DNA of 53,895 nucleotides from Patellaria atrata CBS 101060 (Eukaryota), in the NCBI GenBank assembly GCA_010093705.1, contig MU006108.1, positions 328,843-382,737 of the forward strand, written 5' to 3'. The position numbers were made by a program, and so were the translations under genes. This document shows, in pieces, positions 9,899 through 34,684 of this stretch. The notes under the pieces were generated by a model. The model was given only the letters and a program-made list of their open reading frames with translations. It was not told the DNA's origin and searched no databases. Every line of letters starts with the position of its first letter. Positions within the stretch are counted from its first letter, which is position 1.

Positions 9899-10508
9899 TA
9901 TTACAGCCACAAGTTATAGGAATATATAGATAACGAGTGAGGGGAAAGTAGGAACACTACTCGGGAGAACCACGGATAAAACTAGTAATAAGGGATCACG
10001 TGACTAAAAACTATAGACGTAAAGGATATAAAGGATATAAAAGGGGATCTATATCCACCACGTCTAGGACGTCTAGGTTATAGATATAATAGATATAAAG
10101 GATATAGAAGGAGATCCACGTCTAGAATAGCCACTACGTCTAAAAGGATGTAAGCACCCTAAATTAACTATAGAGGATAGGAATATTTAAGGACGGTCTT
10201 TCCCTTATATATTTAGATTCTTCGTAGTTATTCTTACTATCAATCTTACCTATAGATTTGGATGTTACGGTTTTAAACTTAACTTTATTTATCATATTAT
10301 TTCTATATAGTACGTCTTATCTCATTATAAGCGGTACCCGAAGTTAAGGAGTTAACGAGTTATATCGATAACTTAAAGTGCTTTTATTATACGTATCCTA
10401 TCACTTTACCAAACCTACCTTTATAGTTAACCACGTTAAGTGAGAAGCTAGGCGCGTTTCTAGACTTATCTAGTTCCGTCTTAATAAGTATAGACTCCCG
10501 TTATAATA
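9899..10508 (+). repeat. Family B 5' LTR of B1 (610 bp)
   Basis: Matches 16721-17190 plus 23930-24069 and the reverse complement of 25942-26552 and 32765-33375. Confidence 0.93.
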
Positions 10509-10539
10509 TTATAACTACCACGTAATAGGAAAGCGTATA

Positions 10540-12597
10540 ATAGACCTAGACACGATATCGTTAGCCGTAGCTAATACGAAGACGGATAAAGAATATATCT
10601 AAGCGTTATATAAACGTATTAGCGAACTTGAAAATAAAGGGACGGTCTAAGAACTTAGGGACTAGCTCGAACAACTTATCGTATAGTTGCTCTCACTATA
10701 AAAGCGAACCGCGAAAGTTAAAGAACCCGCACTATATAATGGTAAACGAGACGAGCTAAGAGGATTCTTAACCTAGGTAAGGATCTATTATAAAAGAATA
10801 GGGCTAACGGATAATAGTGAACGTGTACTCGATATATTAACGTACCTTAAAGGAGACGCTCTAGAATAGTTCGAACCTATTACACGAGACTATCTTAAAA
10901 ATAGTGAAGAACACTAGAAAGACGAAATAGTGGAGATCTTTAAGTCGTTTCCAAAGTTCGAAGAAACGCTTAAGAACGTCTTTAGGAAAGTCGATAAATA
11001 ATAAATAGTTAAAAGGAAGCTCTAAGGACTTAGATAGAAGGAGTTAACTTCGAAGTATATAACTATATTCTAGTAGGTAGTATCAATATTAGATTAACTT
11101 AATAAACCACTAATAATCGCCTTCTATTAAGGTTTAAAGGAAGAAGTGAAGGACGAATAGGTTTATTATAAAAGACTAATAACTATATAGGATATAATAA
11201 CCTTAGTAGTTAGAATAGATAATAGGTTATACGAGCGTAGATAGGAAAAGGGAGGATAGAAGAATATTATAGTTAGATATAGAAAGAAGATAATAAGGGC
11301 TATAAATAGATAAGATTAGAGAGACCCGATAGACCTTAACCGACTATAATAAATAAAATAAAAGAAGTCGAAGAAATAACGATAGTTTATCTAAGAAGAA
11401 AGAGAACGTTTTACGAATAGAGTATATCTATAATATAGAGAAGTGGGATATTTTAAGAGAGACTACCCACGGAAGACGTAACTAGCCTCGCGATATAACC
11501 GACGTATATAACTTAGAGTTATATACTTAACGCCACTATCACTAGTCTTATCGCTCGAAGAAGGAGAGATTAAAGAAATGCCGCTACCCTACTAGATAGG
11601 GGTGAGTAGGCTATTAACGCCGTTCCCAATAGTAGGAAACTAGCTAGAGGAGGGAATACTCCGATAACGTTTAGATAACTAATAATATTAGGCGTATAGA
11701 AACGTATATATATATATAGTATTAGAATGCCTAGTATAGAACTAAGGTTAGAAAATTAGAGTATAAATATCTAACGGACCGAGCCTTATATACCGGATTA
11801 TAAAATAATAATAACGGCTCGAACAAGAATTCCAAGACTAGGAGCTAGTTAAACCTAAATCCCACGACGATAGAATTGTCGAAAAACAATAATTAAACCT
11901 TATACCGAGGGTAGAAGACTATTTAGCCTTTCGATAGATATAATATAAAGAGGATAACTACTTATATTATAAATAGTAGAAGATTATAACGAAGTTTAGG
12001 GATCGAGACTCTATCTATATACACTTACTTAAAAGCGAATACTAGGTGGAAGGATGTAAAATCCACGAAGACGAAATAAGAAAAGCTAAAAAGAACTAAG
12101 AACTCGAACCACTAGTAGACGATTATAGAAAGTACGATAGTTTCGACTATATAAATAAGTTTAGGTGTAGGCGACACTATTAAACGCTAATCTATATAGA
12201 ATATATAGTAGCGACGTGGGAAAACTACGAATATAGTACGGAGTACTAATACTATAAAGATTTAGAAGAAGAGTTCTATAAAGAAAAAGTATTCCCGTAG
12301 GAAATAAAAGTACTCTAAAACGATAAAGAAGTACCTAAACACGTTACTAAGTATAATATATAAGACTTCGGATAATACGTAATAAGAGGTATATAGTGTG
12401 ACTATTATATAGTATAGAGGTAGAGAGTAGGAATTAAAAGTAACCCTAGCCACGACGTAGTTATTAAAAGAGAGTGTCGAGAGCTCGAATACGAAGAACA
12501 CCGTAAAGGCCCGTATTACGATAGACACGATAGACTATACTAGGCTAAGTGTATAGAATTCGGTTATCTAGTGTATAGCTATATAAAAAACTACTAA
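10540..12597 (+). pseudogene. gag: Family B gag (686 codons, RIP-disrupted) with a long Cys/His-rich C-terminal extension
   Basis: KVKEPALYNGKRDELRGFLT and LKGDALE*FEP motifs; RIP-degraded CCHC knuckle at about 11424-11466; ends AAAAAAC-TAC-TAA; same 2058-bp length as in B2. Confidence 0.85.
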
Positions 12598-15500
12598 GCC
12601 ACTTAAAATAAAAATAATCGAGAAGTATAGCTTCTAAGTTCTTTAAGATCCTATAAAGTAATAATAAAACGCTTTAGGTAGATATTACTATACACGGTAA
12701 GAGAACGATAGCGCTAGTAGATAGCGGCGCCACTAATTCATTCATTTCACCCCGATAGGTAGAAAAGAAAAGTATACTTTATACGAAACTTAAGAACCTA
12801 GTCCTATTACGACTAGAAAATAGCGAAGGAATAGGATATAGACGAGGTCTAATTAACTTTAGGACTATACTAGTAAAAGTTAACGTATAAGGGAAAGTAA
12901 CTACTTAACGTATTCTTATAATCGATTTAAGAGATATAGATATAATTTTAGAGATAGACTAGTTATAAATAATAAACTTAAATATTAACTAGAAGACGAG
13001 AAGTATCTAGATTAACTAAAATATCTTATAAAAGGATAAAGTTAAGCGAATAAGACGTACTAAATAGATAGACGCTAGTATACCCGTAGAACGTATTTCG
13101 TATTATAAGATAATAAAGATTTATAGAAATAAATCTAAAAGTGTAGAAGTAATATAGTTTAAGAAAGTAGACGTTAAAAAGGTTTCTAAAGAATCTAAGA
13201 TACTTAAAGAATATAGCGAGTTTAAAGATTTATTTAAGAAAGATATAGCGACTATACTTCCAGATCACTAGACGTGAGATCACGAAATAGTGCTAAAAGA
13301 GAGTACGAAACTACGACCCGGTCTAATTTACCCGTTAATAAGGGAATAATATAAAGCACTTAAAGAATATATCTACACTAACTTAGAAAAAGGATATATA
13401 TAATCTAGCGAAAATTTAATAGCTTCACCGATTCTATTTATACTAAAGAAGAATAGTAAGTTAAGATTATATATTAACTATAAATAGTTAAACGACGTTA
13501 TAATTAAGAATAAATATCCACTACCCTTAATCTTAAAAATCTAAGATAGATTATAAAGAGTAAAATAGTTTACGAAATTCGATATCCGAGATAGTTACTA
13601 TCGAATTAGAATAAAAGAAGGCGAAAAATGGAAGATAGTTATAAGAATAAGATTTAAACTATATAAATATATAGTAATACTATTTAGCTTAACTAACGCC
13701 CTAGTAACGTTCTAAGTAATAATTAATTACGCACTAAAAGAATATTTAGACGTATTTATAACTACTTATCTAGATAATATACTAGTATATATAAATGGAA
13801 CACTCGAAAAGTATAGAAAGTATATAAAGAAAGTATTAATGAAACTATAAGAAAAAAGACTTCTAGTACACCTAAATAAATATAAATTCTATATTAAAGA
13901 AACGAAATTCCTAGACTTTATCGTTACCACTAAAAACGTACGAGTAGACTTAAAAAAGATAGCTATAATCTAAGATTAGTCGATACTAAAGAACGTTAAA
14001 AATATATAATCGTTTCTAGGTTTCGCGAACTACTATAAGAAATTTATCTAAAGGTATTTAAAGATAATAACGTCGCTATTAGAATTAATAAAGAAGGAAA
14101 ATACCTTTATTTAGATAAAGAAGGTCTAGAAAATATTCGATAAACTTAAAAAGAAGTTCACTATAACACTTATCTTAGTTATATTTAACCTAGAGAAATC
14201 GATAGTGCTAGAAACTAATATATCTAATTATATATTAAGTGTATATATAAGTTAGCTAGATAAGAAAGGACGACTATATTTAATAATCTTTTATTTATAA
14301 AAGTTTATAGCTATAGAGCTAAACTATAACGTACACGATAAAGAATTATTAGCAATTATCGATATATTCGAATAGTGAAGGTTATACCTTAAAGGATCTA
14401 AGTACACTATAAAAGTTTAATTAAATCACTAAAACCTAATAAACTTCCTCACGATAAAAAAGTTAAATCGAAGATAAGTAAGATAGACGGAAACACTTAT
14501 ATCCTTTAACTTCAAAATATTTTATAGACTAGAAGTCGAAAATAAACTAGCCGATATTATAAGTAGAAGATCTAACTATTTAAAAGGAACGAAATTAGTA
14601 TATAACACGGTACTAAAGAAAGAAAACGACGCGATCACCTATAATTAACTAAAATTAGCTATAATGCTAATAATCGAATCTATAAGAGAATAATAAATTC
14701 GTAATACCTATTAGAAGAATAGTATAATAGAGGAGTTCTAAAGGAATAATAACCTTAAGATAATATAAATAGCTTAAGAAATATAGCTATATAATAGGCT
14801 TATATATATACTAACGATACTACGAAAGACCCTTACTAAAGAAATCCACGAAGCACTAGTATATAATCACTAAGGTATTAATAAAACTTTAGAAAGGATT
14901 CTAAGGAATTACTATTTCCTAGAAATAAGAAGTATAATAAAGTAAGTTATCTTAGAATATAATAACTATATATAGAATAAAAGTGTAAAACACGTATCTT
15001 ATAGACGGATATAATATATTAAACCACTAAAGCGAGTATAGAACTTAATAACGATAGACTTTATTATAGATTTATTAGAATCTAAAGATTTAATAATAGG
15101 AGTAAAGTACGACGCGATATTAGTTATTATAGAACGACTAATAAAGTTCACCTACTTTATACTAGTAAAGACGACGATAATAGCATTATAAGTAGTAGTA
15201 TTAATAATGAAAATAATACTAATAAATCACTAGATACCGAGAGAAATTATCTTAGATAGGGATAAACTATTTAAATTAATGTTTTAGTAGACTCTAGTAT
15301 AAAGTTTAGAGGTAAACTATAAGCTATTAATAAGCTTCCACCTATAAATAGATAGCTAAACCGAGAGAATAAATTAATCTCTAAAGTAATACTTACGTAA
15401 TTATATAAATTACTAGTAGAATAATTAGGTAGAGCTATTACTAATAGTATAATTCGTATATAATAACGCGAAATCCGATATTATAAAGGTTTCACCCTTT

Positions 15501-16235
15501 TATATAAACTATAGTTTTAAACTAGAAGTATATCGTGAGTCGAGAATAGTTTAGAGCATTTTATAGGAAGTAACGTTAAAAGTCGAGTAAATTAAGAAAT
15601 TACACGTATAGCTATCACGAGATATAGCTTTCTAGACGATAAAGGCTATAAAGTATAGTAACTAGTATAGATCGCTAAAACCGATCTTTAAAAGAGGGAA
15701 TAAAGTTTACTTATTATAGAAAAATCTTAAAATAAAATAACCTAATAAGAAACTAGACTATAAGAAAATCGGCCCCTTTAGAATTAAATAGGTTAAAGGA
15801 GAAGTTAATTATAAATTAGAATTACTATAAGGAATAAAGATATATTTAGTTTTCTATATATCACTTCTAAAACTAGTATATACTAACGCTAAACTCTAAA
15901 TAAGACTTATAGAACTTAAGAAGGGAGATATCTATAAGATAAAATAAATCCTAAACCTATAATAAATAAATAATTAGTATAAGTATTTAGTAAAATGGAA
16001 AGGCTATAAATATATAGATAATACGTGGGAACTATTTAAGTATTTAACGAACTATAATTAAAAACTTAAATAGTTTTATCGTTAAAACTAGGGAATTCTA
16101 GACCCTCGAGGGTAAAGAAATCTAGATTAGACTAATTAAAGAGAGATACGATAGCGGAGGAAGAAGAAGCGACTAAGGAAACTCGCTATCTTTTAATTAT
16201 CTATTTTAAAGCCTTAAGTTCCTCGATAAAACTAA
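12590..16235 (+). pseudogene. pol: Family B pol (protease, RT, RNase H, integrase, chromodomain), RIP-disrupted
   Basis: ALVDSGATNSFIS at about 12711-12749; YLDNILV (YLDD) at about 13767; [11 protein letters not shown] at about 14326; chromodomain YLVKWKGY..NTWE at about 15984-16031. Confidence 0.92.
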
Positions 16236-16605
16236 GCTTACGATAAATTATTTCGCCCTCCTTCTAATCGAGAAGTTAAAGCTACTATATTAATCGCTTC
16301 TTACGAGCGAAAGTCTCTAATATCCGGGCGTGTACGTTATTACGGGAAACTCGCGCCTTAACGAGCTTATAACGAAACTTAAATCGCGAAGCGTTTAGCT
16401 TATCCTAATCCTTTTATATCACTATAAGGTCGTATTTTAAACCACGAGCCACACACTTAGAATAGAAACCGGAAGAAAGATCGAGACGGTAAATACGAGA
16501 CTAACGATAATAAGTTGAATAGGGAGTAGGTATTAGTCGACTAGAGGATATAATTTAGGCTATAAGACGCCGATAACGAACTATATAAGATTTAGTTTAA
16601 GGTAT
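16036..16605 (-). pseudogene. RIP-inactivated copy of the antisense Zn2Cys6-type gene in B1
   Basis: 570-bp reverse-complement match to 26668-27237; start ATG changed to ATA, several Cys codons changed to Tyr, and internal stops. Confidence 0.88.
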
Positions 16606-16720
16606 CTTAGAAGAAAGGAAAGAGAGATACGTACGACTTAATAGATAGATAATACGTCTACTTTATATCTAAGTAAAGGGAATAAACTCTTAAGATAAGA
16701 GTTAAAAAAGGGAAGGATAG

Positions 16721-17190
16721 TGTTATAGCTATAAGTTATAGGAATATATAAATAATAAATGAGGGAAAAGTAGAAATATCACTTAAAAGAACTATAGATA
16801 AAACTAGTAATAAGGGATCACGTGACTAGAAACTATAAACGTAAAGGATATAAAGGATATAAGAGAGGATCCACGTTCACTATATTTAGGACGTCTAGGT
16901 TATAGACGTAATAGATATAAAGAATATAGAAGAAGATCCACGTCTAGAATAATCACTATATCTAAAAAAATGTAAGCACCTTAAATTAACTATAAAGAAT
17001 AGGAATATTTAAGGATAGTCTTTCCCTTATATATTTAGATTTTTCGTAGTTATTCTTACTATTAATCTTATCTATAGATTTAAATATTATAGTTTTAAAC
17101 TTAACTTCACTTATTATACTATTTCTATATAGTACGTCTTATCTTATTATAAGCGGTACCTAAAGTTAAGGAGTTAGCGAGTTATATCGA
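16721..17190 (+). repeat. B1 3' LTR, first 470 bp (preceded by a polypurine tract)
   Basis: Starts TGTTATAGC after AAAAAAGGGAAGGATAG; 470 bp plus 140 bp at 23930-24069 gives 610 bp. Confidence 0.92.
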
Positions 17191-17716
17191 TATAACGATA
17201 TATTATAATACTAATCCCGTATTTCCTATACTAAGTGTTTAGTTTATTTGTAAGAGATCTTTACCGGGTTAGACGCGGAAAAGATCTCTAAACGCTAATT
17301 AGTTAAATAGAAGATAGTCAGGCTAAGGCTTAGTAAAGCGGGACTATTATATATAGATATTCGGCCCACGATATTATTATTTCTTAACTTAATCTCTATA
17401 CTTAATAGTTAGTAATAGAGATAGTTAAAATACGATTACTATAGCTATACTATATTATTACACTAGATTAAGTTCACCTTTAACGGCCTCTAGAAAGGCG
17501 ATATAATATTCTAACCGGAGCACGATATTAGTCTAGCTAATAAACGATTATCGGACTAATCGGGAATCTATAAGTAGCTAAGCTCTACTAGTAATAAGAT
17601 ATTCGGTGCCTAAAAGTATTAACGCCGACGATAACGACGACCTAATACTTAAAAGAGATTAGGACTAACGAATACGAATTACTTAGAGAAGTAAATATTA
17701 TAGTAAACTAAATAAG

Positions 17717-19177
17717 ATAGTTAAACCTTTAGTAACCTTAACGAAGTAGATAGGTAACGAGTTAACTATAAATTTAGAAGTAGAGAGTAGTATCGGATTA
17801 AAAGAAAAAGGAAAAATGCACCGATATAAATTGACGCTAGAAGTGATCGACTAGTAGATTACTAACGATATTCTAGAAGCGGATCTATAGAACCTACTAA
17901 GAGAAATCCCCGGAATAATAGAAGAAGGGAAGCCTCTTAGATATACCGCTATTATAGACGATCGAAACGCCGATATAATCGACGGAGCGAAGGAATAAGT
18001 AGCTAAAAACCTAGACTAATTCGTAACGGAGTATCTCTATACGAGAGCGAAGCTTATAACTCGAGAGATATAACTCGAAAAGATAGTAAACCTTATTAAC
18101 GAGATAACGCCCGATTTATAGCTAAAGCTATAAGTATACTAAGCGAACGAAGAAGCTATAGAACGCCTCTAGGACGAAATCGATAATTTAAAGAGGTAGA
18201 TTAAGTAGTCTAAACTAGACTAAAAAAGCGTCTAGTTCGATGACGAATTTAACGACGAAGAACTATTAGCACTATATAGTCGTAACGATCGAGCTAGAAT
18301 AGTCGACTTAACCGGAAGCTTTAGAAGTAGAGGCGATAATAAGATAAAGAAGTTCCCTAATCCACTAGAACTAACCGATAGTAAGAAACTAATCTATAAG
18401 GAGTAGAAGAGTAAGATAAACGATAAACTCCACGTTAATAGCGACTAATTCTAAGACGAAAGGGCGAAGACTACCTATATTAAGACACGGATTAGTGGCG
18501 AGGTAGCTAAATATATATACCCTTTCTTAGAATCGGAGGAGGACGACGTAACCTTAATAAGGCTAATAAGATTTCTAGACTAGATCTATAAGGACCTAAA
18601 TAGGCGACTAAAAGTTAGAGATAAACTAAAGAAGTTAAGGTAAGGCTATCTAGCGGACTTTCCGAAGTTCTAGTCTACGTTTATCCGGCTAGCTAATAAA
18701 GCTAGGTTATCACGCGACTAGTGGAAAGAGGAACTCTATAATAGACTCTACGATAGTCTAAGGCTAATAATAGCGGAAGCCGTAAGTAACGACGAAATTA
18801 GCTTCTAAAAGTACTATAATAAAGTCACGATATAGGCACGAGAGCTAGAAAGGTTAGGTAAAGCTAGTAAGGCCCGTAAAGAAAGTTAGAAGCGTGGTAA
18901 ACCGACTAGAATAACTTCTATCTTAATAACGACGAATAGAACTTTATACCGATTAGGGAGCGGAGGAACCACCTCACCTATAACACTATAAGTGACGGAG
19001 TAGACTATAACTATTCGGAAGTTTACGGGTAACTACTTTAACTACGGTAAGGCCGGATATAGAGCGTTAAAATGCCGGGGACTAAAGAAGATAACCAAAG
19101 TAAAGTTAGTCTAGAAAGACGAGTATTAGAGCTTAAAGTTAGATTTAAGGTTAGATTTAGAAAACGAGAAACCCTAA
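17717..19177 (+). pseudogene. gag: Family A gag of A2
   Basis: 1461 bp, colinear with the A1 gag; RIP stops. Confidence 0.88.
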
Positions 19178-22100
19178 ATAAAGACTCCGTATTAGGGCTA
19201 ATAGTAGGAGTATTAATAACACTAATCAGCGATCCGGTATTAGAAAAGCTATTCACAATACCGTACCGAATCTCGAAGAACGGAATCGTAATATAGCTTA
19301 GAGCTCTAATTGATACTAGAGCTTAAGAGTATACCTTACTAAATAAGAGATAGCTACCCGCTCTAAAATAACGTCTCGGAATCGAAGTTAGAAAGATAGA
19401 CTAGGAGATTAAAGTTAATACCTTTAATAATTCGAAGGTAGCACTAATTAACTAAGTACTCGAGGCGAGCCTCGTAATTAGAGGACGAAGGTGGCTAACA
19501 CCGATTATAGTAATAGATACGGGCTATAATAATATACTTATAGGTAAGAAGTGGTTCTTTAAGACTAATAGCCTACCTAATTATAGGCACTATCGGATTA
19601 TTTAGCCGGAATAAGCTACTACAGTTAAAGACTAATAACGAGATATCGTGATTCCGAAGAGCGAGCTACAAATCTAAATTAACCTATAGCACTAATTCGA
19701 TATAGAACGACGAGATAAAGCTATCGATAAACGAGAATATAACCGATAGAAAGTATTAGTTAACTAGAGGAGGAAACCGTAACTATTCTAATAAAAGTAA
19801 CCGAGTTTATAGGCTAAGAATATCGGCTCCGATCTTCGAAAGATAAAATTAGAACTATCGGACCTAACGAAGAGAGAGACGCCGGAACTCTCTAAAAAGC
19901 TAAAGCCGAAGTCGAGTAAACGGGTTAATATTACTAGGATCTATATAGATATCTACTTAGTTAGCGGAGAAAACTACCTAAGGAACGTAAAGCGTAAAGA
20001 CGTCGTTATAGATACTATAAGTCTATACGAGATTAACTCCTTAATATAAGATCGACTCTCAGAAGACGAAAACCCTCTAGACGAAGATAAAGACGCTTAT
20101 AGAGCGATAATCTACGAAAAGTTACCTAAGGAATATCACCACTTAGCCCACGTATTCTCGAAATCTATATCCGATAAGCTACTACCGCTTAGAGAAGACG
20201 TAGACCACAATATAGTATTAGACTAAGATAGTAATCTTACTACTAGCCCCTTATATAATATACCTATCGAATATTTATAGCTAGTAAAGGACTATCTAAA
20301 GGAGCACCTTTAGAAGGGGTTTATCGTTCCGAGCGAGGCACTATACGCGTCTCTAATATTATTCGCTAAGAAGCTAGGGGGAGGTTAAAGATTCTACGTT
20401 AACTATAGAAAGCTAAATAGTATTACTAAGAAGGATAAATATCTATTACCTTTAATCGAAGAAACACTAGCGCGCCTTCGACGAGTAAAGATATTTATAA
20501 AACTTAACGTAAGATAAGTATTCTATTAAATCTAGATAAAGGAGTTAGCCGAAGATCTTACCACCTTCCGAACGAGATATAGATCGTTTAAGTATAAGGT
20601 ACTACCTTTTAGGTTATATAACGGCCTAGCCTCGTTCTAATAATTTATTAATAAGGCGCTTTTCTAATACCTAGACGACTTCTATATAGTATATATTAAC
20701 GATATACTAATCTACTTTAAGTGCCCACTAGAGCACTAGACCCACGTCGCGAAAGTGCTAGAAGCACTAGCTAAGGCCGGCCTATAAGCCGATATTAAGA
20801 AAAGCGAGTTCCACGTAATAAAGATAAAGTTCCTCGGCTTTATTATTAGTACTAACGGAATAGCGATAGATCTAGAAAAGACTAAAATAATCCGAAACTA
20901 GAAGTTACTAATAAACGTAAAGAGGATCTTATCGTTTAACGGATTCTATAACTTCTACCGGAAGTTCCTAGAGAAATTCGGACGAGTTATACGACTATTG
21001 ACGATACGGATATGAAAAGGGGTTTGGAAACCACTTAGATAGAAAGAAGAAGAGGTATTTAAGAAAGTAAAAGAGCTAATTCTATTAGATTAAGTGTTAA
21101 CGCACTATAACCCTCTACTCGAGACGAAAGTCGAGTCCGACTATAGTGACGGGGTTATTATAGTAGTTATATTATAGCTCTACGGACACGTCTAAAGGCT
21201 AGTTACCTTCTAGACTAAGACGTTATCGGAGATAGAACTAAGGTACGAAATCCACGATAAGGAAATACTAGCCGTGGTAAGAGCACTAGCCGAGTGGAGA
21301 AGTATATTAGTAAGGCTATAGCAAGTTCCCTTCACTATAATCACTAACTATAGAGCACTAGAATACTTTACTATAAAATAGTTACTCAATACTAGATAAA
21401 CCCGATAGAGTAAAGCTCTCTCTAATTTCCACTTCCGAATCACGTATTAGCCCGGAGCCTAAAACGTCGTGGTAGACACACTCTCCCGTAAATAAGAAGA
21501 CCTAAAGATAGCGAAAGATAAAAATATTACGATACGGACCTAAGTGTTAATCGACCTAAATATAATAGTAGCACCTCTTCGGCTCTTAATAAAATAATAA
21601 CTACTACTTAAGAAGATATCTTAGAGTAATAAGAAATATATAATCTCTAGAGAGAAAGTGGTAGAAAAGTACGCTCTAAAGTTAGGACCCGGGACCCGGG
21701 TGGCGGTAGCCGAGGTGGCGATAGCCGAGCCTTTATAGGGGACGGAGGGAGCCGAAGCTTAGGACTAAGAGTCTATAATAACTAAAACCTTGAAAGGGAG
21801 GAATAATATATTAAAGAAGTGTATTAACCCCGACTTTAGGCTAGGGCCCACGTCTATCCACTCTATAATTCCCACTATAACTGAAAAAGAAAAGGAAGTT
21901 AGGTATAAGGTAGAAGAAAGGGAAGATATACCTATAAATTTAAAGCGGTATATTTAAAACGAGCCCGATCGGAAATAAGAGCCGCTAGTAACGTACTTAC
22001 TAATAGATCGAATATTAAAAGCGAACCGGAAGTATAACTCTTTATCGGTATATCGAAAGTAAGTCGAAGCTAAAGAGAGGCACTAGAAACTATAAAATAG

Positions 22101-23574
22101 CCTACTTATTAGATTTAGTAGACTTATAGTCCTAGACGTGGATAATCTTAGAACGTATCTAATACGAGACGTGTATAACGCACTAGTTATAGGATATCTA
22201 GGAACTAGGAAGACGAAAGAACTAATTCGAGCGCGATACTACTAACCCGGATTAGTAGCTAATATAGATAGATATATCCGGAACTATCACACTTATCGTC
22301 GGACGTATACACTAAGAGATAAAACCCCCGGTTTACTAAAATCACTACTAATCGGAGATAGATATTAGTAACACGTCGCCTTCGACTTTAAATCGTTCCC
22401 TAAGGACACGCACGGATTCGAAATAGCGTTTATAGTAGTAGATCGACTAGGAAAGAGAGCGATCTCACTCCCCTATACTAAAGATATCTCGGCTAAGGTA
22501 GCCGTAAAGCTATATTATAAACACGTATAGCGGATATACGGTATACCGGAGATAGCGATATTAGACCGTAGTCTATAGTTTATTTCTATATTTATAGATA
22601 AGCTTTATAAACTAATAAAAGTGAAATAGAAGCTATCTATAGCTTACCACTTATAGACGAACGGAGATACGGAGATTATTAACTAGTATATAGATTTATA
22701 GCTCCGGCCCTTTATAAACCATTATTAGAGTAATTAGTTAGAGTTACTACTTATAGTAGACTTTACCTAGGCCACGTTAGTCTATAAATTAACGGGTATT
22801 TCCCCTTACGAGTTAGAATTCGGTTACTAACTACGAATACATTTCGACTAGTAAGAGCGGATAGATCTCGACGTATATAAGATAGTCCGAGAAAAGATAA
22901 GTAGAGAGGAAGCTTAACTATTCACGAAACACACCCACGACGCCGTTAAATAGGCGAGGAATAACCTAGAAAAGGTATAAGTAATATAGATAAAGTCGGT
23001 TAATAAGTATCGGAGAGAACTAGACTTCGGACTAGGAGACTACGTCTTTATCTTATATAAAGGCTAGATATCGGATAGATCGAGTGTTAAACTAGATTAT
23101 TAGAACGTAGGTCTATATAAGATAATAGAAATAAAGAGGCACTCTTATATAATCGACTTACCCACTAATATAAAGATATCGAACGTATTCTACGTAGATA
23201 GGCTTCGTAAAGCACCGATAAACCCGTTACCCGGATAACGGCTAGAACCATCACCGCCGATCGAAATAGACGGCGAGCCCGAATATAAAGTAGATAAGAT
23301 CCTAGTAAGCCGTATCTCTCGCGGTAAGTTATAGTATAAAGTAAGTTAAATCGGATACGACCCTAATAAGATATAGTATCCGGCTTATAACTTTATCGGA
23401 GCACCGTATAAGCTCGAAGAATTCTATAATTAGAGATTAATCGACGCCGGACCACTAGTCTAACTTAAAGAATAGCTCTAAGCCTTTAGATCTAAGATAG
23501 AAGTAGAGCCGTACGACGATAATAATATAGCTAAAAAGACGGGGCCTATATAGATTTTAAGACGTCGTAAATAG
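19160..23574 (+). pseudogene. pol: Family A pol (protease, RT, RNase H, long linker, integrase, chromodomain)
   Basis: ALIDTRA (LIDTGA) at about 19303-19323; VYINDILIY at about 20689; YEIHDKEILAVV at about 21244; integrase core about 22370-22830; chromodomain EYKVDKILVSR at about 23281-23430. Confidence 0.92.
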
Positions 23575-23929
23575 ATAATAGATCGCGTTATAGAACGCTA
23601 CTAATATTATCACGGAAATTGGGGCCGATTTCTACTATTAAGGGGGGGGTAATATAACGACGTGTCACGATACTAATCCCGTATTTCCTATACTAAGTGT
23701 TTAGTTTATTTATAAGAGATCTTTACCGGGTTAGACACGGAAAAGATCTCTAAGCGCTAATTAGTTAAACGGAAAATAGTCGGGCCGAGGCTTAGTAAGG
23801 CGGGACTATTATATACGAATATTCGGCTTATAATATTATTATTCCTTAACTTAATCTCTATACTTAGTAGTTAATAATAGAGATAGTTAAAATATAATTA
23901 CTATAGCTATACTATATTATTATAATCGA

Positions 23930-24069
23930 TAACTTAAAGTGCCTTTATTATATATATCCTATCACTTTACTAAACCTATCTTTATAGTTAATCACGTTAA
24001 GTGAGAAGTTAAGCGTGTTTCTAGACTTATCTAGTTCCGTCTTAATAAGTATAGACTCCCGTTATAACA
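23930..24069 (+). repeat. B1 3' LTR, last 140 bp
   Basis: Matches 10369-10508 and ends in CCCGTTATAACA. Confidence 0.92.
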
Positions 24070-26605
24070 CTCTAATAAGTAAAGATATTTACGAAACTTA
24101 ATATAAGATAAATATTCTACTAAATTTAGATAAAAAAGTTAGTCGAAAATCTTACTATCTTTTAAATAAAATATAAATTATTTAAGTATAAGGTATTATC
24201 TTTTAAATTATATAATAGTTTAGCCTTATTTTAATAATTTATTAATAAGGCGCTTTTCTAATATTTAAATAACTTCTATATAATATATATTAATAATATA
24301 TTAATTTATTTTAAGTATTTATTAGAGTATTAAATCTATATTATAAAAGTATTAAAAGTATTAATTAAGACCGGTTTATAAGATAATATTAAGAAAAACG
24401 AGTTTTATATAATAAAAATATAATTTCTTAGCTTTATTATTAGTATTAATAGAATAACGATAAATTTAGAAAAGATTAAAATAGTTTAAAACTAATAATT
24501 ATTAATAAATATAAAAGAAATTTTATTATTTAATAAATTTTATAACTTTTATTAAAAGTTTTTAGAGAAATTTAGATAAATTATATAACTATTAATAATA
24601 TAGATATAAAAAGAGATTTAAAAACTATTTAAATAAAAAGAAGAAGAGATATTTAAGAAAATAAAAAAGTTAATTCTATTAGATTAAATATTAATATATT
24701 ATAATCCTCTATTTAAGATAAAAGTTAAGTCTAACTATAATAATAAGATTATTATAGTAATTATATTATAACTTTATAAATATATTTAAAGGCTAGTTAC
24801 CTTCTAGACTAAGACGTTATTAGAGATAAAATTAAGATATAAAATCTATAATAAAGAAATATTAGCTATAATAAAAGCACTAGTCGAGTAAAGAAGTATA
24901 TTAATAAAGTTATAATAAATTTCCTTTACTATAATTATTAATTATAAAGTATTAAAATATTTTACTATAAAATAGTTACTTAATATTAGATAAGCTTAAT
25001 AAAATAAAGTTTTCTTTAATTTTCACTTCTAAATTATATATTAACTTAAAGCTTAAAATATCGTAATAAATACGTTTTCTCGTAAATAAGAAGATCTAAA
25101 AATAGTAAAAAATAAAGATATTATAGTATAAACCTAAATACTAATTAATTTAAATATAATAATAGTATCTTTTTAGCTCTTAATAAAATAATAACTATTA
25201 TTTAAGAAGATATCTTAAAGTAGTAAGAAATATATAATCTTTAAAAAGAGAATAATAGAAAAGTATACTTTAAAGTTAAAGTTTAAGGCCCGGATAGTGA
25301 TAACTAAAATAGCGATAACTAAATCTTTATAAGGGATAAAGAAAATTAAAACTTAAAATTAAAAATCTATAATAATTAAAATCTTAAAAGAAAGAAATAA
25401 TATATTAAAAAAGTGTATTAATTTTAATTTTAAACTAAAGTTTATATCTATTTACTTTATAATTTCTATTATAACTAAAAAAGAAAAGGAAGTTAAATAT
25501 AAGATAAAAAAAAGGAAAAATATATTTATAAATTTAAAGTAATATATTTAAAATAAGTTTAATTGAAAATAAAAGTTACTAATAATATACTTACTAATAA
25601 ATTAAATATTAGAAGTGAACTAGAAATATAATTCTTTATTAATATATTAAAAGTAAATTAAAGTTAAAGAAAAATATTAGAAACTATAAAACGATTTATT
25701 TATTAAATTTAATAGATTTATAGTTTTAGATATAAATAATTTTAGAATATATTTAATATAAGACGTGTATAACGCACTAATTATAGAATATCTAGAAATT
25801 AAGAAGACGAAAAAACTAATTTAAATATAATATTATTAACTCGAATTAGTAGCTAATATAGATAGATATATCCGAAACTATTATATCTATTATCGGACGT
25901 ATATATTAAAAGATAAAATCCTCGATTTACTAAAATTATTATATTATAACGGAAGTTTATACTTATTAAGACGGAACTAGATAAATCTAGAAACACGCCT
26001 AGCTTCTTATTTAACGTGGTTAACTATAAAGGTAGGTTTAGTAAAGTGATAGGATATATATAATAAAAGGCACTTTAAGTTATCGGTATAATTTACTAAC
26101 TTCTTAACTTCGAGTAATACTCTTAAAGAGATAAGACGTACTATATAGAAATAATATAATAAGTGAAGTTAAGTTTAAAACCGTAATATCCAAATCTATA
26201 GGTAAGATTAATAGTAAGAATAACTACGAAGAATCTAAATACATAAGAGAAAGACCGTCCTTAAATATTCCTATCCTCTATAGTCAATTTGGGGTGCTTA
26301 CACCCTTTTGGACGTGGTAGCCGTTCTAGACGTGGATCTCCTTCTACGTCCTTCACGTCCACTACGTCCATAACCTGGACGTCCTAGACGCGGTGGACGT
26401 GGATCCCCTCTCGCGTCCTTTGCGTCCATTGCGTCCACAGTTTCTAGTCACGTGACCCCTTGTTACTGGTTTCATCCGTGGTTCTCCCGAGTGGTGTTCC
26501 TACTTTCCCCTCACTCGTTGTCTGCATGTTCCTATAACTTGTGGCCGTAACACTATCCTCCCCCTTCTCAACTCTTGTCCCAAGAGTTTATTCCTTTTGC
26601 TTGGG

Positions 26606-26667
26606 TATAAAGTAGACGTGTTGCCCACCTATCAAGTCGTACGCACCTCCTTTTCCTTTCTTCTAAG
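26606..26667 (+). promoter_or_regulatory. Putative core promoter of the antisense gene
   Basis: TATAAA at 26606-26611, pyrimidine-rich tract at about 26646-26664, and AAG-ATG start context (A at -3). Confidence 0.5.
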
Positions 26668-27237
26668 ATGCCTCGAACTGAATCTCGCGCAGTTCGTCGT
26701 CGGCGTCTCGCAGCCCAAATTGTGTCCTCCGGTCGACTAATGCCCACTCCCTGTTCAACCTGTCGCCGTCAGTCTCGCACTTGCCGTCTCGATCTCTCTT
26801 CCGGCTTCTGTTCTAAGTGTGTGGCTCGTGGTTCAAAATGCGACCTTATGGTGACACAAAAGGACTGGGACAAGCTGAACGCTTCACGATCTGAGCTTCG
26901 TCGCAAGCTCGCTGAGGCGCGAGTTTCCCGTGACAACGCACATGCCCGGATGTTGGAGGCTTTCGCTCGTGAGGAGCGATTAATGCAGCAGCTCCAACTT
27001 CTCGATCAGAAGGAGGGCGAAATGATTCGTCGTGAGCTTAGTTCCATCGAGGAGCTTGAGGCTTTGGAGCGAGCAGCCGAAGGGCAGCGAGCTTCCTCGG
27101 TCGCTCCTTCTTCCTCCGCTGTCGTGTCTCCTTCTGGTTGGTCTGGTTTGGATTTCTCCGCCCTCGAGGGTCTGGAATTCCCTGGTTTTGGCGATGAAAC
27201 TGTTCAAGTTTCTGATCGCAATTCGTCAAATGTTTGA
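26668..27237 (+). CDS. Intact 189-aa Zn(II)2Cys6-like zinc-cluster, coiled-coil protein, antisense within element B2
   Basis: C29-x2-C-x6-C-x8-C-x2-C-x6-C58 spacing; basic N-terminus (RAVRRRR); helical E/R/L/A-rich middle; acidic-aromatic tail; GC-balanced with CpA/TpG retained. Confidence 0.85.
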   Translation: MPRTESRAVRRRRLAAQIVSSGRLMPTPCSTCRRQSRTCRLDLSSGFCSKCVARGSKCDLMVTQKDWDKLNASRSELRRKLAEARVSRDNAHARMLEAFAREERLMQQLQLLDQKEGEMIRRELSSIEELEALERAAEGQRASSVAPSSSAVVSPSGWSGLDFSALEGLEFPGFGDETVQVSDRNSSNV

Positions 27238-30200
27238 GTGGTTCCCACGTGTTGTCTACGTGTTCGTAGCCTTTCCATTTTACTAAATACTTGTACTGAC
27301 CGTCGACTCGTTATAGGTCTAAGATCCGTTCTACCTCGTAGATATCTTCTTCCTCGAGTTCTATAGGTCGTGTTTGGAGTTTAGCGTTAGCATGTGCTGG
27401 TTCTAGGAGTGATATATGAAAAACTGGGTGTATCTTCATTCCTTATGGTAATTCTAACTCGTAATTGACTTTTCCTTTGACCTATTTAATTTTAAAAGGG
27501 CCGATTTTCTTGTGGTCTAGTTTCTTGTTAGGTCGTTTTGTTTTGAGGTTTTTCTATAACAAGTAAACTTTGTCCCCCCTTTTAAAGGTCGGTTCTAGCG
27601 ATCTATGCTAATTGCTGTACTTTGCAGCCCTTGTCGTCTGGAAAGCTATATCTCGTGATAGTTATGCGTGCAATTCTTTGATTTGCCCGACTTTTAACGC
27701 TACTTCTTATAAGATACTCTAAACTGTTCTTGGCTCACGATATACCTCTAGTTCGAAACTATAGTTCGTATAGAAGGGTGAAACCTTCGTAGTATCGGAT
27801 TTCGCGCTATTATATGCGAATTATACTATTGATAGTAGCTCTACCTAGTTATTCTACTAGTAATTCATATAGTTGCGTAAGTATTGCTCTAGAGATTAGT
27901 TTATTCTTTCAGTCTAGCCATCCGTTTATAGGTGAAAGCTCGTTAATAGCTTATAGTTTACCCCTAAACTCTATACTAGAGTCTACTAAAACGCTAATTT
28001 AAATAGTTTATCTCTATCTAAGATAATCTCTCTTAGTATCTAGTGATTTGCTAGCACTATTTTTATCACTAATACTACTACTTATAATGCTATTATCGTT
28101 ATCTTTACTAGTATAAAGTAGGTGAACTTTATTAATCGCTCCACGATAACTAATATCGTGTTATACTCTACTTCTATTACTGGATCTTTAGATCCTAGTA
28201 GACCTATAATAAAGTCCATTATTATTAAGTCTTAAGCTCGCTTTAGTGGCTTAATATATTATATTTATCTATAGGATATATGTTTTACACTCTTATTCCG
28301 TGCGTAGTTATTACACTTTAAGATAACTTACTTCACTATACTTCTTACTTTTAGGAAATAGTAATTCCTTAGGATTCTTTCTAAGGTTTTATTAATACCC
28401 TAGTAACTATACGTTAGTGCTTTATAGATCTCTTTAGTAAGGGTCTTTCGTAGTATCGTTAGTATATATATAAGTCTATCGTATAGCTATATTTCTTAAG
28501 CTATTTATATTACCCTAAAGTCGTTATTCTTTCTAAACTCCTCTATTATACTATTCTTCTAATAGATATCACGAATTTATTATTCTCTCGTGGATTCGAT
28601 TATTAGTATTATAGCTAATTTTAGCTAATTATAGGTGATCGCGTTATTTTCTTTCTTTAGTACTATATTATATATTAGTTTCGTTTCTTCTAGGTAGTCG
28701 AATCTTCTACTTATAGTATTAGCTAGTTTATTTTCGACTTTTAGTCTATAAAATATTTTGAAGTTAAAGGATACGAGTGTTTCCGCCCACCTTACTTATC
28801 TTCGATTTAACTTCTTTATCGTGAGGAAGTTTATTAGGTTTTAGTGATCTAACTAAACTTTTATAGTGTACTTAGGTCCTTTAAGGTATAACTTTCACTA
28901 TTCGAATACGTCGATAATTGCTAATAATTCCTTATCGTGTATATCGTAGTTTAGCTTTACGGCCGTGAACTTTCGCGAATAAAAGGCTATTAGATATAAT
29001 CGTCCTTTCTCGTCTAGCTAACTTATATATACACCTAGTGTATAATTAGATACGTTAGTCTTTAGCACTATCGATTTCTCTAGGTTAAATATAATTAAGA
29101 TAGGTGCTATAGTGAATTTCTTCTTAAGTTTATTAAATACTTTCTATATCTTCTCTATCTAAACGAAGGTATTTTCCTTCTTTATTAACTCTAATAGCGG
29201 CGTTATTACCCTCGAGTACCCCTAGATAAACTTTCTATAGTAGTTCGCGAAATCTAAAAACGATTATATATCTTTTACGTTTTTTAGTATTAGCTAATCT
29301 TGGATTACGGTTATCTTTTTTAAGTCTACTCGTATACCTTTAATGGTAACGATAAAGCCTAGGAATTCCGTTTCTTTAATATAGAATTTACACTTATTTA
29401 GGTGTATTAGAAGTCTCTTTTCCCGTAGTTTCGTTAATATTTTCTTTATATACTCCCTATACTCTTCGAATATTCCGTTTATATATACTAGTATATTATC
29501 TAGATAAATAGTTATAAATACGTCTAAATACTCTCTTAGTATATAATTAATCACTATTTAGAACGTTACTAGGGCGTTAATTAAGCCGAATAGTATCACT
29601 ATATATTCGTATAGTCTAAACCTCGTTCTTATAACTATCTTCTATTCTTCGCCTTTTTTTATTCTAATTCGATAGTAACCGTCTCGGATATCGAATTTCG
29701 TAAACTATTTTACTCCTTATAACCTATCCTAGATTTCTAAGATTAAGGGTAATAGATATCTATTCTTAATTATAGTGTCGTTTAGCTATCTATAGTTAAT
29801 ATATAATCTTAGCTAGCTATTCTTCTTTAATATAAATAAAATCGGTGAAGCTATTAGACTTTCGCTAGGTCGTATATATTCCTTTTCTAGGTTAGTATAA
29901 ATATATTCTTTAAGTGCTTTATATTATTCTCTTATTAACGGGTAAATTAGATTAGGTCGTAATTTTATACCCTTCTTTAGCACTATTTTATAATCCTATA
30001 TCTAGTAATTTAGAAGTATAGTCGCTATATTTTCTTTAAATAAATCTTTAAACTCGCTATACTTTTCAGGTATTTTAGGTTCTTCGGAAACCTTTTTAGC
30101 GTTTACTTTTCTAAGCTATACTACTCTTACGCTCTTAGGTTTATTTCTATAGATCTTTATTATCTTATAGTGCGAAATACGTTCTATAGATATACTAGCG

Positions 30201-30685
30201 TCTATCTATTTAGTACGCCTTATTCGCTTAACTTTATTCTTTTATAAGGTGTCTCGATTAATCTAGATACTTCTTATCTTCTAGTTAATATCTAGATTTA
30301 TTATTTATAACTAGTCTATCTCTAGAATTATATCTATATCTTCTAGATTAGTTATAAGGATACGTTAAGTAGTTACCTTCCCTTATATATTAACTTTTAC
30401 CGGTATAGTCTTAAAGTTAATTAGACCTCGTCTATATCCTATTTCTTCGCTATTTCCTAGTCGCAACGGGACTAGATTCTTAAATTTCACGTAAGGTATA
30501 CTCTTCTTTTCTACCTATCGGGGTGAGATAAACGAATCGGTGGCGTCACTATTAACTAGCGCTATCGTTCTCTTACCGTATATAGTAACATCTATTTAAA
30601 GCGTTTTATCGTTACTTCGTAGGGTTTTAAGAAATTTAGGAGCTATACTTCTCGATCGTTTCTATCTCGAGTGGCTTAGTAGTTT
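27038..30685 (-). pseudogene. pol: Family B pol of B2; chromodomain end nearly unmutated
   Basis: RT fragment ORF 29294-29554 (YLDNILVY); QYKYLVKWKGYEHVDNTWEPLKHLTNCDQKLEQFH read at about 27195-27298; C-terminal tail is ORF 27038-27229. Confidence 0.93.
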
Positions 30686-32733
30686 TTTATATAGCTATAC
30701 GTTAGATAACCGGGTTCTATACACTTAGCCTAGTGTAGTCTATCGTGTCTATCGTAATACGGGCCTTTACGGTGTTCTTCGTATTCGGGCTCTCGACACT
30801 CTCTCTTAATAACTACGTCGTGGCTAGGGTTACTTTTAATTTCTACTCTCCACCTCTATACTATATAATAGTTATACTATATACCTTTTATTATATATTA
30901 TCCGAAGTCTTATATATTATACTTAGTAACGTGTTTAGGTACTTCTTTATCGTTTTAGAGTACTTTTATCTCCCACGGGAATACTTTTCCTTTATAGAAC
31001 TCTTCTTCTAATCCTCTATAGTACTAATAATCCGTGCTATATTCGTAGTCTTCCCATATTATTACTATATATCTTATATAGATTAGTGTTTAATAGTGTC
31101 GCCTACACCTAAACTTATCTATATAGTCGAAACTATCGTACTTTCTATAATCGCCTATTAGTGGTTCGAGTTCTTAATTCTTTTCAGTTTTTCTTATTTT
31201 ATCTTCATAGATTTTATATCCTTTCACCTAGCATTCGCCTTTAGGTAAATATATATAAGTAGGGTCTCGATCCCTAAACTTCGTTATAGCCTTCTACTAT
31301 TTATAGTATAAGTAGTTATCCTCTTTATATTATATCTATCGAAAGGCTAAATAGTCTTCTATCCTCGGTATAAGGTTCAATTATTATTCTTCGATAATCG
31401 CGTCGGTATTAGATTTAGGTTCGATCGGTTCCTAATCTTAGAACTCTTATTCAAGCTAACGTTATTATTCTATAATCCGGTATATAAGGCTTAGTCCGTT
31501 AGATATTAATACTCTAATTCTCTAACCCTAGTTCTATACTAGGTATTCTAATACTATATATATATATACGTTTCTATACGCCTAATATTGTTAGTTATCT
31601 AAACGTTATCGGAGTGTTTCCTCCTCTAGCTAGTTTCCTACTATTAGGAACGACGTTAATAGCTTACTTACCTCTATTTAGTAGGGTAGCGGTATTTCCT
31701 TAATCTCTTCTTCTTCGAGCGATAAGACTAGTGATAGTGGTGTTAGGTGTATAACTCTAAGTTATATACGTCGGTTATATCGCGAGGATAGTTACGTCTT
31801 CTATAGATAGTCTCTCTTAAAATGTCCCATTTCTCTATATTATAGATATACTTTATTTATAAAGCGCTCTTTTTCTTCTTAGATAAATTATCGTTATTTC
31901 TTTAACTTCTTTTATTTTATTTATTATAGTCGATCGAGGTCTATCGAGTCCCCCTAATCTTATCTATTTATAGCCTTTATTACCTTCTTTCTATATTTAA
32001 CTATAATATTCTTCCGTCCTCCCTTTTCCTATCTACGCTTATATAACCTATTATCTATTCTAACTACTAAGGTCACTACGTCCTATATTATTATTAGTCT
32101 CTTATAATAAACCCATTTATCCTTCACTTCTTCCTTTAAACCTTAATAGAAAGCGATTATTAGTGATTTATCGGGCTAACCTAATATTAATACTACTTAT
32201 TAGAACGTAGTCGTATACTTTAAGGCTAACCCTTTCTATCTAAGTCCTTAAAGCTTTCTTTTAGCTACTTATTATTTATCGACTTCCCTAAAAATATTCT
32301 TAAGCGTTTCTTTAAACTTCGGAAATAACTTAAAGATCTTTATTATTTCGTCTTTTTAGTGTTTTTCGCTATTCTTAAAATAGTCTCGTGTAATAGGTTT
32401 AAACCATTCTAGAGCGTCTTCTTTAAGGTACGCTAATATATCGAGTACACGTTCACTATCGTCCGTTAACCCTATTCTTTTATAATAAATCCTCACCTAG
32501 ATTAAGAATCCTCTTAGCTCGTCTCGTTTACTATCGTATAGTGTGGGTTCTTTAACTTTCGCGGTTCGCTTTTATAATAAGAGTAACTATACGGTAAGTT
32601 GTTCGAGTTAGCCCCTAAGTTCTTAAACTATCCCTTCATTTTCGAGTTCGCTAATACGTTTATATAACGCTTAGATATATTCTTTATCCGTCTTCGTGTT
32701 AGCTACGGCTAACGATATCGTGTCTAAGTCTAT
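30676..32733 (-). pseudogene. gag: Family B gag of B2
   Basis: 2058 bp, reverse-complement match to 10540-12597. Confidence 0.86.
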
Positions 32734-34684
32734 TATACGCTTTCCTACTATATGGTAGTTATAATGTTATAACGGGAGTCTATACTTATTAAGACGGAAC
32801 TAGATAAGTCTAGAAACGCGCCTAGCTTCTCACTTAACGTGGTTAACTATAAAGGTAGGTTTAGTAAAGTGATAGAATACGTATAATAAAAGGCACTTTA
32901 AGTTATCGGTATAACTTACTAACTCCTTAACTTCGGGTAATACTCTTAAAGAGATAAGACGTACTATACGGAAATAGTGTAATAAGTGAAGTTAAGTTTA
33001 AAACCGTAACATCCAAATCTATAGGTAAGATTAATAGTAAGAATAACTACGAAGAATCTAAATATATAAGGGAAAGACCGTCCTTAAATATTCCTATCCT
33101 TTATAGTTAATTTAGGGTGCTTACACTCTTTTAGACGTGGTGGCCGTTCTAGATATAGATCTTCTTTTACGTCCTTCACGTCCATTATATCTATAACCTA
33201 GACGTCCTAGACGCGGTGGACGTGGATCCCCTCTCGCGTCCTTTACGTCCATTACGTCCATAGTTTCTAGTCACGTGACCCCTTATTACTAGTTTTATCT
33301 ATGGTTCTCCCGAGTGGTGTTCCTACTTTCCCCTTACTCATTATCTATATATTCCTATAACTTATGGCCGTAATATATTACTAATTAGAGATAAATATTA
33401 ATAATATATTATCTTCGACTTTAAATTATTCCTTAAGAATATATATAGATTCGAAATAACGTTTATAGTAGTAGATCGATTAGAAAAAAGAGCGATCTTA
33501 CTTCCTTATATTAAAAATATCTCGATTAAGATAACTATAAAGCTATATTATAAATATATATAATAAATATATAATATATTAAAGATAACGATATTAGATT
33601 ATAATCTATAGTTTATTTCTATATTTATAGATAAACTTTATAAATTAATAAAAGTGAAATAGAAACTATCTATAACTTACTATTTATAAATAAATAAAGA
33701 TATAAAGATTATTAATTAGTATATAAATTTATAGCTTTAACTCTTTATAAACTATTATTAGAATAATTAATTAAAGCTATTATCTATAATAGACTTTATT
33801 TAAATTATATTAATTTATAAATTAATAGGTATTTTTCTTTATAAGTTAGAATTTAGTTATTAACTATAAATATATTTTAATTAATAAGAGCGGATAGATC
33901 TCGATATATATAAGATAGTCCGAGAAAAGATAAATAAAGAAGAAGCTTAACTATTTACGAAATATATCTATAATACTATTAAATAGGCGAGGAATAACCT
34001 AGAAAAGATATAAATAATATAGATAAAGTCGATTAATAAGTATCGAAGAAAACTAGATTTCGAATTAAAAGACTACGTCTTTATCTTATATAAAGACTAG
34101 ATATTAAATAAGTTAAGTATTAAACTAGATTATTAAAATATAGATTTATATAAAATAATAGAAATAAAGAGGTACTCTTATATAATTAACTTATCTATTA
34201 ATATAAAAATATCGAATATATTCTATATAAATAGACTTTATAAAGCACTAATAGACCTATTACTTAGATAATAATTAGAATTATCACCGTTAATCGAAAT
34301 AGATAACGAGTCTAAATATAAAGTAGATAAGATCTTAGTAAACTATATCTCTCGCGGTAAATTATAGTATAAAGTAAGTTAGATTAAATATAACCCTAAT
34401 AAGATATAATATTTAACTTATAACTTTATCGAAGTATTATATAAACTTAAAGAATTTTATAATTAGAGATTAACTAATATTAAACTATTAATCCGACTTA
34501 AAGAATAACTCTAAGCCTTTAAATTTAAGATAAAAGTAGAGCCGTATAACGATAATAATATAATTAAAAAGAAGGGGTCTATATAAATTTTAAGATATTA
34601 TAAATAGATAATAGATTATATTATAAAATACTATTAATATTACTATAGAAATTAAGGCCGATTTTTACTATTAAAAAGAGGTAA

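Follow-up and report, generated by a model that had tools for sequence, protein, structure and literature searches.

A cold spot for RIP-type change (RIP, repeat-induced point mutation) recurs family-wide at the 3' regulatory module of a retrotransposon family, family B, in Patellaria atrata CBS 101060. It stands out most in element B2, a full-length chromodomain Ty3/gypsy retrotransposon on the minus strand, since the remainder of this copy is close to saturation with mutations. B2 lies in a 53,895-nucleotide (nt) stretch of contig MU006108.1 (positions 328,843 to 382,737), here called the window, in whose coordinates all positions are given. The spared island, 26281-27300, covers the U3 region of the 3' long terminal repeat (LTR) and an antisense open reading frame (ORF) resembling a zinc-cluster gene. 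Other copies spare this interval as well, its left edge falls at a breakpoint between two subfamilies (alpha, to which B2 belongs, and beta), mutation rises gradually on its right side, and the sparing is independent of an intact ORF. The features concerned are as follows.

26291..26552, minus strand: U3 of the 3' LTR with an alpha-type array, ACGTCC/CGTCCA x7; both the cold zone and the subfamily-specific block begin here
26553..26667, plus strand: polypurine tract (of the minus strand), together with a putative antisense promoter that contains TATAAA (26606)
26668..27237, plus strand: intact antisense ORF, 189 amino acids (aa), with a six-cysteine cluster and a long helix at residues 64-144
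27038..27310, minus strand: end of pol with the chromodomain (Pfam Chromo, E 2.9e-13), overlapped by the antisense ORF at the latter's 3' end
27238..27950, both strands: ramp of rising RIP on sequence common to all subfamilies, from per-bin rates
25943..26290, minus strand: part of the 3' LTR shared by all subfamilies, heavily RIP-mutated, with putative U5, R and TATA-like U3 end (TATTTAA at 26261-26267, minus strand)
25943..33375, minus strand: B2, with 615-nt direct repeats 91.5% identical; its gag and pol match an intact relative
32766..33375, minus strand: B2 5' LTR, its U3 partly spared (33/47 sites mutated on the left, 22/40 in U3)
9901..17192, plus strand: B1, an alpha copy in inverted orientation that is saturated with RIP, the homologous block included (49/61 and 35/41 sites over the ORF region)
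17190..23930, plus strand: family A element, used as control, without antisense zinc-cluster ORF and without U3 array
Flanks of 25943..33375: insertion site of B2, a RIP-degraded copy of family A (another Gypsy family), from the match of the flanks to that family

A RIP-poor island in element B2

Composition and site counts both confirmed that the island is real. Its GC content is 0.52 and its density of CpA plus TpG 12.0 per 100 nt, bearing out a preliminary description of this DNA as having ~1 kb rich in CpA/TpG and of balanced GC. The corresponding values were 0.28 and 2.1 in the left-hand part of the LTR, 0.39 and 7.6 at 27301-27800, and 0.29 and 2.4 in pol at 27801-30000. The island holds 122 of these dinucleotides, compared with 72 in the next-best 1020-nt stretch of the window and a window median of 4.

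RIP sites were scored at positions where natural family B copies carry CpA or TpG; inside the alpha block, mutation of B2 is scorable only where another alpha copy, mainly L031, retains the site. On this basis 4 of 115 sites were mutated at 26291-27237, against 313 of 394 in the integrase and reverse transcriptase (RT) regions of pol. The island is thus nearly, but not entirely, RIP-free, as it had been called. Along B2, mutated sites numbered 31/43 in the left part of the 3' LTR, 3/45 in U3 and promoter, 1/70 in the antisense ORF, 19/66 at 27238-27700, 142/187 in integrase, 171/207 in the RT core and 184/224 in gag. The heavily mutated flanks and the gradient first placed at about 27300-27800 are therefore genuine, the ramp running over 27238..27950. 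When scored on the LTRs, the 3' copy had 6/41 mutated sites in U3 and 35/47 in its left part, whereas in the 5' copy the two parts did not differ significantly (p = 0.18), so that sparing of the 5' U3 is only partial. The spared LTR segment had been described as upstream of the gene; it is indeed LTR sequence, namely the U3 belonging to the 3' LTR of an element on the minus strand. A homologue does exist nearby in B1, as stated, but is now just 77% identical to the island, with a GC content of 0.32 and 2.0 CpA plus TpG per 100 nt. Over the island nearly all differences between the two lie on B1's side, while in pol they lie on both sides.

The changes themselves have a RIP-type signature, namely C-to-T change preferring CpA on both strands of the repeat, with transversions rare. 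Comparing B2 with near-unmutated copies, C-to-T change had occurred at 489/625 sites in CA, 151/484 in CG, 98/447 in CC and 96/656 in CT context. Over 27900-32700 the base after CpA also counts, CpApG being most and CpApC least mutated (logit +0.58 vs -1.18). Both strands were mutated equally in mid-level copies, which suggests several rounds of RIP with several partners. Strand-biased tracts were present in some light copies. Same-strand clustering, which reached p < 0.05 in a single copy out of 14 from family B, does not separate premeiotic pairing from a mitotic Dim2 route. In the host genome three C5-methyltransferase matches score over the Pfam cut-off, one of them carrying BAH domains; size and domain content are the sole basis for a tentative assignment to DIM-2, RID or DNMT5. 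In Zymoseptoria, the passages cited describe a Dim2-dependent CA mutator tied to 5-methylcytosine and trimethylated lysine 9 of histone H3 (PMC8016269).

The same interval is spared in other family B copies

We mapped 23 family B copies onto B2, of which 11 were partly mutated, 8 saturated and 4 nearly unmutated. The last group (L035, L038, L045, L061) served as references only, and old saturated B copies were excluded from site counts. L053 and L071 are without the zone, and L040 and L039 cover only the 3' part of the ORF. Examining other copies for the same sparing had been proposed in the preliminary description, and all six other partly mutated copies that cover the zone were depleted in it (p from 7e-3 to 3e-35, values inflated by non-independence of sites). 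Mutated sites in the zone and in integrase plus RT were, respectively, 9/93 and 272/392 in L031, 12/133 and 268/392 in L036, 10/109 and 145/394 in L043, 8/109 and 71/393 in L044, 11/105 and 97/394 in L037, and 7/97 and 64/305 in L063. Both part-covering copies agreed (L040 2/24, L039 0/35). L031 shows the same left step as B2, with 31/47 sites mutated to the left and 5/27 in U3. When B2 was left out and the data were adjusted for copy and sequence context, the zone lay 2.4-3.5 logits under the peak, and the profile formed a dome with its peak at about 28900-30400 and its minimum over U3 and the ORF. Beta copies, which are the majority, were spared about as deeply as alpha copies. RIP is clustered, and chance could have left a single patch in a single copy. 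Recurrent sparing of the same interval rejects chance patchiness as a full explanation, leaving it next to no probability.

Selection, conversion and chimerism

Domestication, in which selection preserves the zinc-cluster gene of this copy with its promoter, would suit the fact that the zone is cleanest in B2 (4/115) although B2 is elsewhere the most mutated of the 11 partial copies. The B2 ORF is also open, and comparison of the subfamilies shows purifying selection on the protein family (see below). However, the zone is spared in L031, L036, L043 and L044 despite a stop in the ORF, and B2 retains every one of its 17 synonymous and 43 non-coding CpA/TpG sites. The ORFs of L035, L037 and L045 are open too, and at the 9% rate of the other copies the probability of escaping all 11 stop-prone sites is 0.35. 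Selection on the ORF is therefore not needed, and this first of the earlier proposals appears improbable.

Conversion by a young donor copy, or a recombinant cDNA derived from one mutated and one intact template, would be in keeping with a family that is a mosaic of recombined blocks. The core of B2 is nearest to a beta copy, L047, with a slightly raised pattern concordance (3.1 vs 2.2-2.8), and conversion of LTR subfamilies is reported in the passages cited for crapaud, a chromodomain LTR element of Podospora (PMC10787394). By contrast, no donor was found: B2 and L031 differ at 25 positions over ~670 nt, in both directions, and B2 has 12 non-RIP alleles that the other alpha copies lack. On its right side the island ends gradually, with the ramp on both strands, and B2 and L047 have just 65-68% of intact sites in common. 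L031 must also have gained the same step in place, because its two LTRs differ, which again counts against conversion. Recent conversion thus finds little support and is very unlikely. An inherited RIP pattern was also considered and was not supported.

An assembly or polishing chimera, with reads of young copies placed in B2, is the least well tested rival. N gaps lie on or beside the block in L031, L036, L038, L040, L043, L044 and L053. Contigs of runs X1 and X2, which omit minority variants, are without the window's letter at 26319, 26354, 26805, 26815, 26848, 27221, 27233, 27326 and 27419, and those shown at 26857-26973 differ from it by 3-4 letters. Yet the majority alleles of these runs are absent from B2, and about single-copy depth remains for B2's letter at the private positions 26412, 26628 and 26904. 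Exact contigs were found at 25732-26007, 27632-27776, 27836-27949 and 28319-28444, one of them within the ramp, and copies on other contigs have the same shape with alleles of their own. The public contigs neither prove nor refute a chimera; like conversion, it has little in its favour and we judge it highly unlikely. A plasmid search gave no match.

The left edge coincides with a subfamily breakpoint

The two best-fitting causes, a subfamily-specific block and promoter-anchored protection, lie outside the explanations listed in the preliminary description. Alpha and beta copies diverge by transversions and gaps from about 26290 to about 27030, the sole such block in this part of the element, and the left edge of the island is this breakpoint. 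A probe inside the block gave 7 matches, and an RT probe matched 40 of the 48 candidates that were scored; the shared LTR part had 194 first-look candidates in the genome. The bin with the lowest RIP, 26943-27193, contains an indel that separates even beta variants. As the block at 26291-27030 differs between subfamilies, most genomic copies would be unable to pair there, which would produce the sharp left edge.

Family A provided a control. Its subfamilies (17190-23930, L073-L086) are identical over the first 2.7-3.0 kb and divergent afterwards. RIP fell from ~90% to ~10% near the A1/A2 subfamily breakpoint (L079, L082) and correlated with smoothed divergence (Spearman -0.74). Heavy RIP in partly mutated family A copies was confined to the shared 5' part. 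In Neurospora, RID-type mutation stays inside the duplicated, shared homology, according to the passages cited (10.1101/115501).

The breakpoint, the indel in the lowest bin, family A and the confinement of RID-type mutation all argue for homology alone, whereby few pairing-competent partners carry the block, RIP fades near the ends of paired tracts and promoters play no part. In family B, however, divergence fails to predict the RIP profile (Spearman -0.24, p = 0.28), and 4-5 young alpha partners are present. The ramp lies on shared sequence, yet the 350-nt shared LTR part is mutated right to the edge. Homology also leaves the two LTRs of single copies at odds, with 28/43 sites mutated in the left part of the 3' LTR and 5/83 in the 5' LTR of L031, and 12/39 and 6/83 in L040. 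There is little fade at the 5' end of family A, and no additional partner family sharing only the RT, which could have underlain the RT peak, was found among 13 further loci. RIP can moreover read 36% interspersed identity in close repeats, in the passages cited (PMC4858203). Homology alone is thus possible but rather unlikely.

A ramp on shared sequence points to possible protection around promoters

RIP rates in B2 rose through consecutive 250-nt bins from 26943 as 0.03, 0.21, 0.29, 0.67 and 0.79, on both strands. On shared sequence the ramp extends 0.7 kb in B2 and ~1.8 kb on average. The level of RIP falls off again on the way to the 5' LTR and does not recover past a second divergent block. 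L031 and L040 both combine a spared 5' LTR with a mutated left part of the 3' LTR; for L031 a GC-rich neighbourhood on its 5' side may be the explanation. Of 11 copies, 9 were fitted better by a model of distance from two promoters than by averaged homology; multiplying the two models gave the best fit, and B2 was best fitted by a ramp from the putative antisense promoter only. The U3 array and the antisense transcription unit may keep local chromatin open or unmethylated, such that mutation would fade in over 0.7-1.8 kb downstream. We give about an even chance to both causes stacking, with missing partners setting the left edge and promoter-anchored protection the right ramp.

Several points weigh against this combination. 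RIP in family A drops at its own subfamily breakpoint without any antisense gene, and that family has no promoter-proximal sparing, its 5' end being the most mutated part. The 5' side of B2 itself is unprotected (gag 184/224). Homology was preferred in 2 of the 11 copies, most per-copy differences in fit were small, and the promoter models, scored on non-independent sites, were devised post hoc after the data had been seen. The two causes are confounded because the U3 array and the subfamily block start at the same left coordinate. Saturated copies are mutated across the zone at 61-88% (L046 54-59%), hence its sites are mutable and protection is relative. Among the contigs displayed from runs X1 and X2, none matches exactly inside the island, which favours a chimera. 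RIP in Neurospora is also said, in the passages cited, to act regardless of coding capacity or position (10.1101/2021.04.05.438447).

Other candidate influences were tried and rejected. Local GC content improved the fit only slightly (4944 to 4923), unmutated GC outside the block was uncorrelated with RIP (rho -0.33, p = 0.17), and the strong GC correlations came from one comparison that is circular. A leak from AT-rich flanks is not a general rule, as L036 and L053 have flanks of 0-8% GC and lightly mutated ends. The second divergent block, at 30700-31300 near the gag-pol junction, occurs as haplotypes X and Y that do not separate the gag-side sparing. These haplotypes are sorted independently of alpha and beta, indicating recombination among family B copies.

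The antisense ORF belongs to the element

The antisense protein has six cysteines (C29, C32, C39, C48, C51 and C58) spaced C-X2-C-X6-C-X8-C-X2-C-X6-C, which fits the Zn(II)2Cys6 pattern CX2CX6CX5-12CX2CX6-8C. Across 93 sequences C58 is invariant and each of the others is present in at least 90%. Its Pfam Zn_clus score, 14.1 bits, is under the cut-off of 21; 14 of the 93 relatives match Zn_clus at E<=0.01. The predicted structure (pLDDT, the predicted local confidence score, 87.5) has an 80-residue helix. Foldseek matches against the PDB were weak, with the best rows, Put3, Pho7 and Ppr1, at E 0.32-0.98 and none at E<=0.001, but the ten best were all Gal4/Put3/Ppr1-type Zn(II)2Cys6 DNA-binding domains. 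Sequence search gave coiled coils as top hits. The protein shows a weak resemblance to these domains in its six-cysteine spacing followed by a coiled coil. It differs in falling under the Pfam cut-off, in Foldseek E values of at least 0.32, in its length of 189 aa, in an extra N-terminal basic helix and in having no Fungal_trans domain.

The ORF had 33 matches in the genome, and its large, unnamed protein family has 1001 representatives at E<=0.001. In metagenome locus L051 a homologue (36% identical, E 1e-17) lies tail-to-tail with an intact pol, and in L052 one lies beside an LTR-like stretch and gag; these are two loci out of 591 candidate stretches. Between subfamilies dN/dS, the ratio of non-synonymous to synonymous change, was 0.18-0.23 over codons 1-70, a ratio by which the protein family is under purifying selection. 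The genomic matches, the representatives, the tail-to-tail position in L051 and the dN/dS identify the ORF, from its sequence, as a gene of the element, placed antisense between pol and the 3' LTR (aORF-3R type).

Several observations concern the relatives of this gene. In L052 (1996-2537) the homologue is split over two frames right after the sixth cysteine, as by an intron, and given the antisense orientation such an intron could outlast reverse transcription. The LTR end and polypurine tract of the distant metagenome element L051 (1770-1800) are almost identical to those of B2. Beta copies have three coiled-coil lengths, all in frame (equivalents of 26936-27030; L035-L049, L063).

Each of the four ORF-bearing elements examined has its own LTR tandem array, with CGTCCA in alpha (window 26291-26460), CGACCA in beta (L036), GTCCCA in L051 (1610-1760) and GATCGC in L052 (1700-1860). 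In the family A LTR we found no tandem array, and the family has no antisense ORF and no promoter-side sparing. The antisense protein might bind its own U3 arrays and shield promoters and nearby DNA from methylation and RIP, which would make it a transposon-encoded counter-defence. Behind this doubtful proposal stands a single observation, the co-variation of protein and array from one subfamily to another. In Arabidopsis, the VANC anti-silencing proteins encoded by VANDAL transposons bind tandem motifs of their own elements and locally lift silencing. They would serve as a model for counter-defence, although protein and element class are unrelated and binding here is hypothetical.

Relation to known systems

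A close parallel is crapaud, in which RIP acts across subfamilies that have R/U5 and most of the internal region in common and diverge in U3 (PMC10787394). In the passages cited its variable part is <200 bp and it has two ORFs, compared with a block of ~740 bp here that includes an antisense gene and is measurably spared; its authors also conclude that U3 divergence is not an escape from RIP. Boty/BcGypsy1 in Botrytis, likewise a fungal chromodomain Gypsy element, carries brtn, an additional ORF that runs antisense in the interval from pol to the 3' LTR and is given there as of unknown function (Zhao et al. 2011, as cited in PMC8365987, PMC7264820, PMC4227169). This comparison is by description only, and the citing passages name neither a zinc cluster nor a RIP profile. 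The known RIP-type routes share with family B the C-to-T change at CpA in repeats, one being confined to homology and one spreading with heterochromatin. In the passages cited for them, no part of a repeated element is described as reproducibly spared. In the titles and abstract openings searched (subscription papers were outside this scope) we found neither a fixed RIP cold zone nor a Zn2Cys6 antisense ORF in fungal Gypsy elements. The parts themselves are of known kinds.

RIP is usually considered blind to the content of a repeat. A fixed cold zone on a regulatory module means that either subfamily swapping shelters the module or promoter chromatin limits RIP in nature. Either cause would help to explain how LTR elements keep their regulatory parts alive under RIP. 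The cold zone also gives a large unnamed protein family a testable role, with B2 as an intact natural gene.

Neighbouring elements

B2 has all the features of a chromovirus, with two LTRs, a polypurine tract, and gag followed by a pol ending in integrase and chromodomain; a target-site duplication is not recognisable after RIP. Insertion of the family A element split the 3' LTR of B1 at 17192, and the remainder of that LTR lies at 23919-24075. The gag of a third, lightly mutated relative matches that of family B at 83-86% (L102:3031-4978, G000:C40:2551-3777, G000:C58:297-669).

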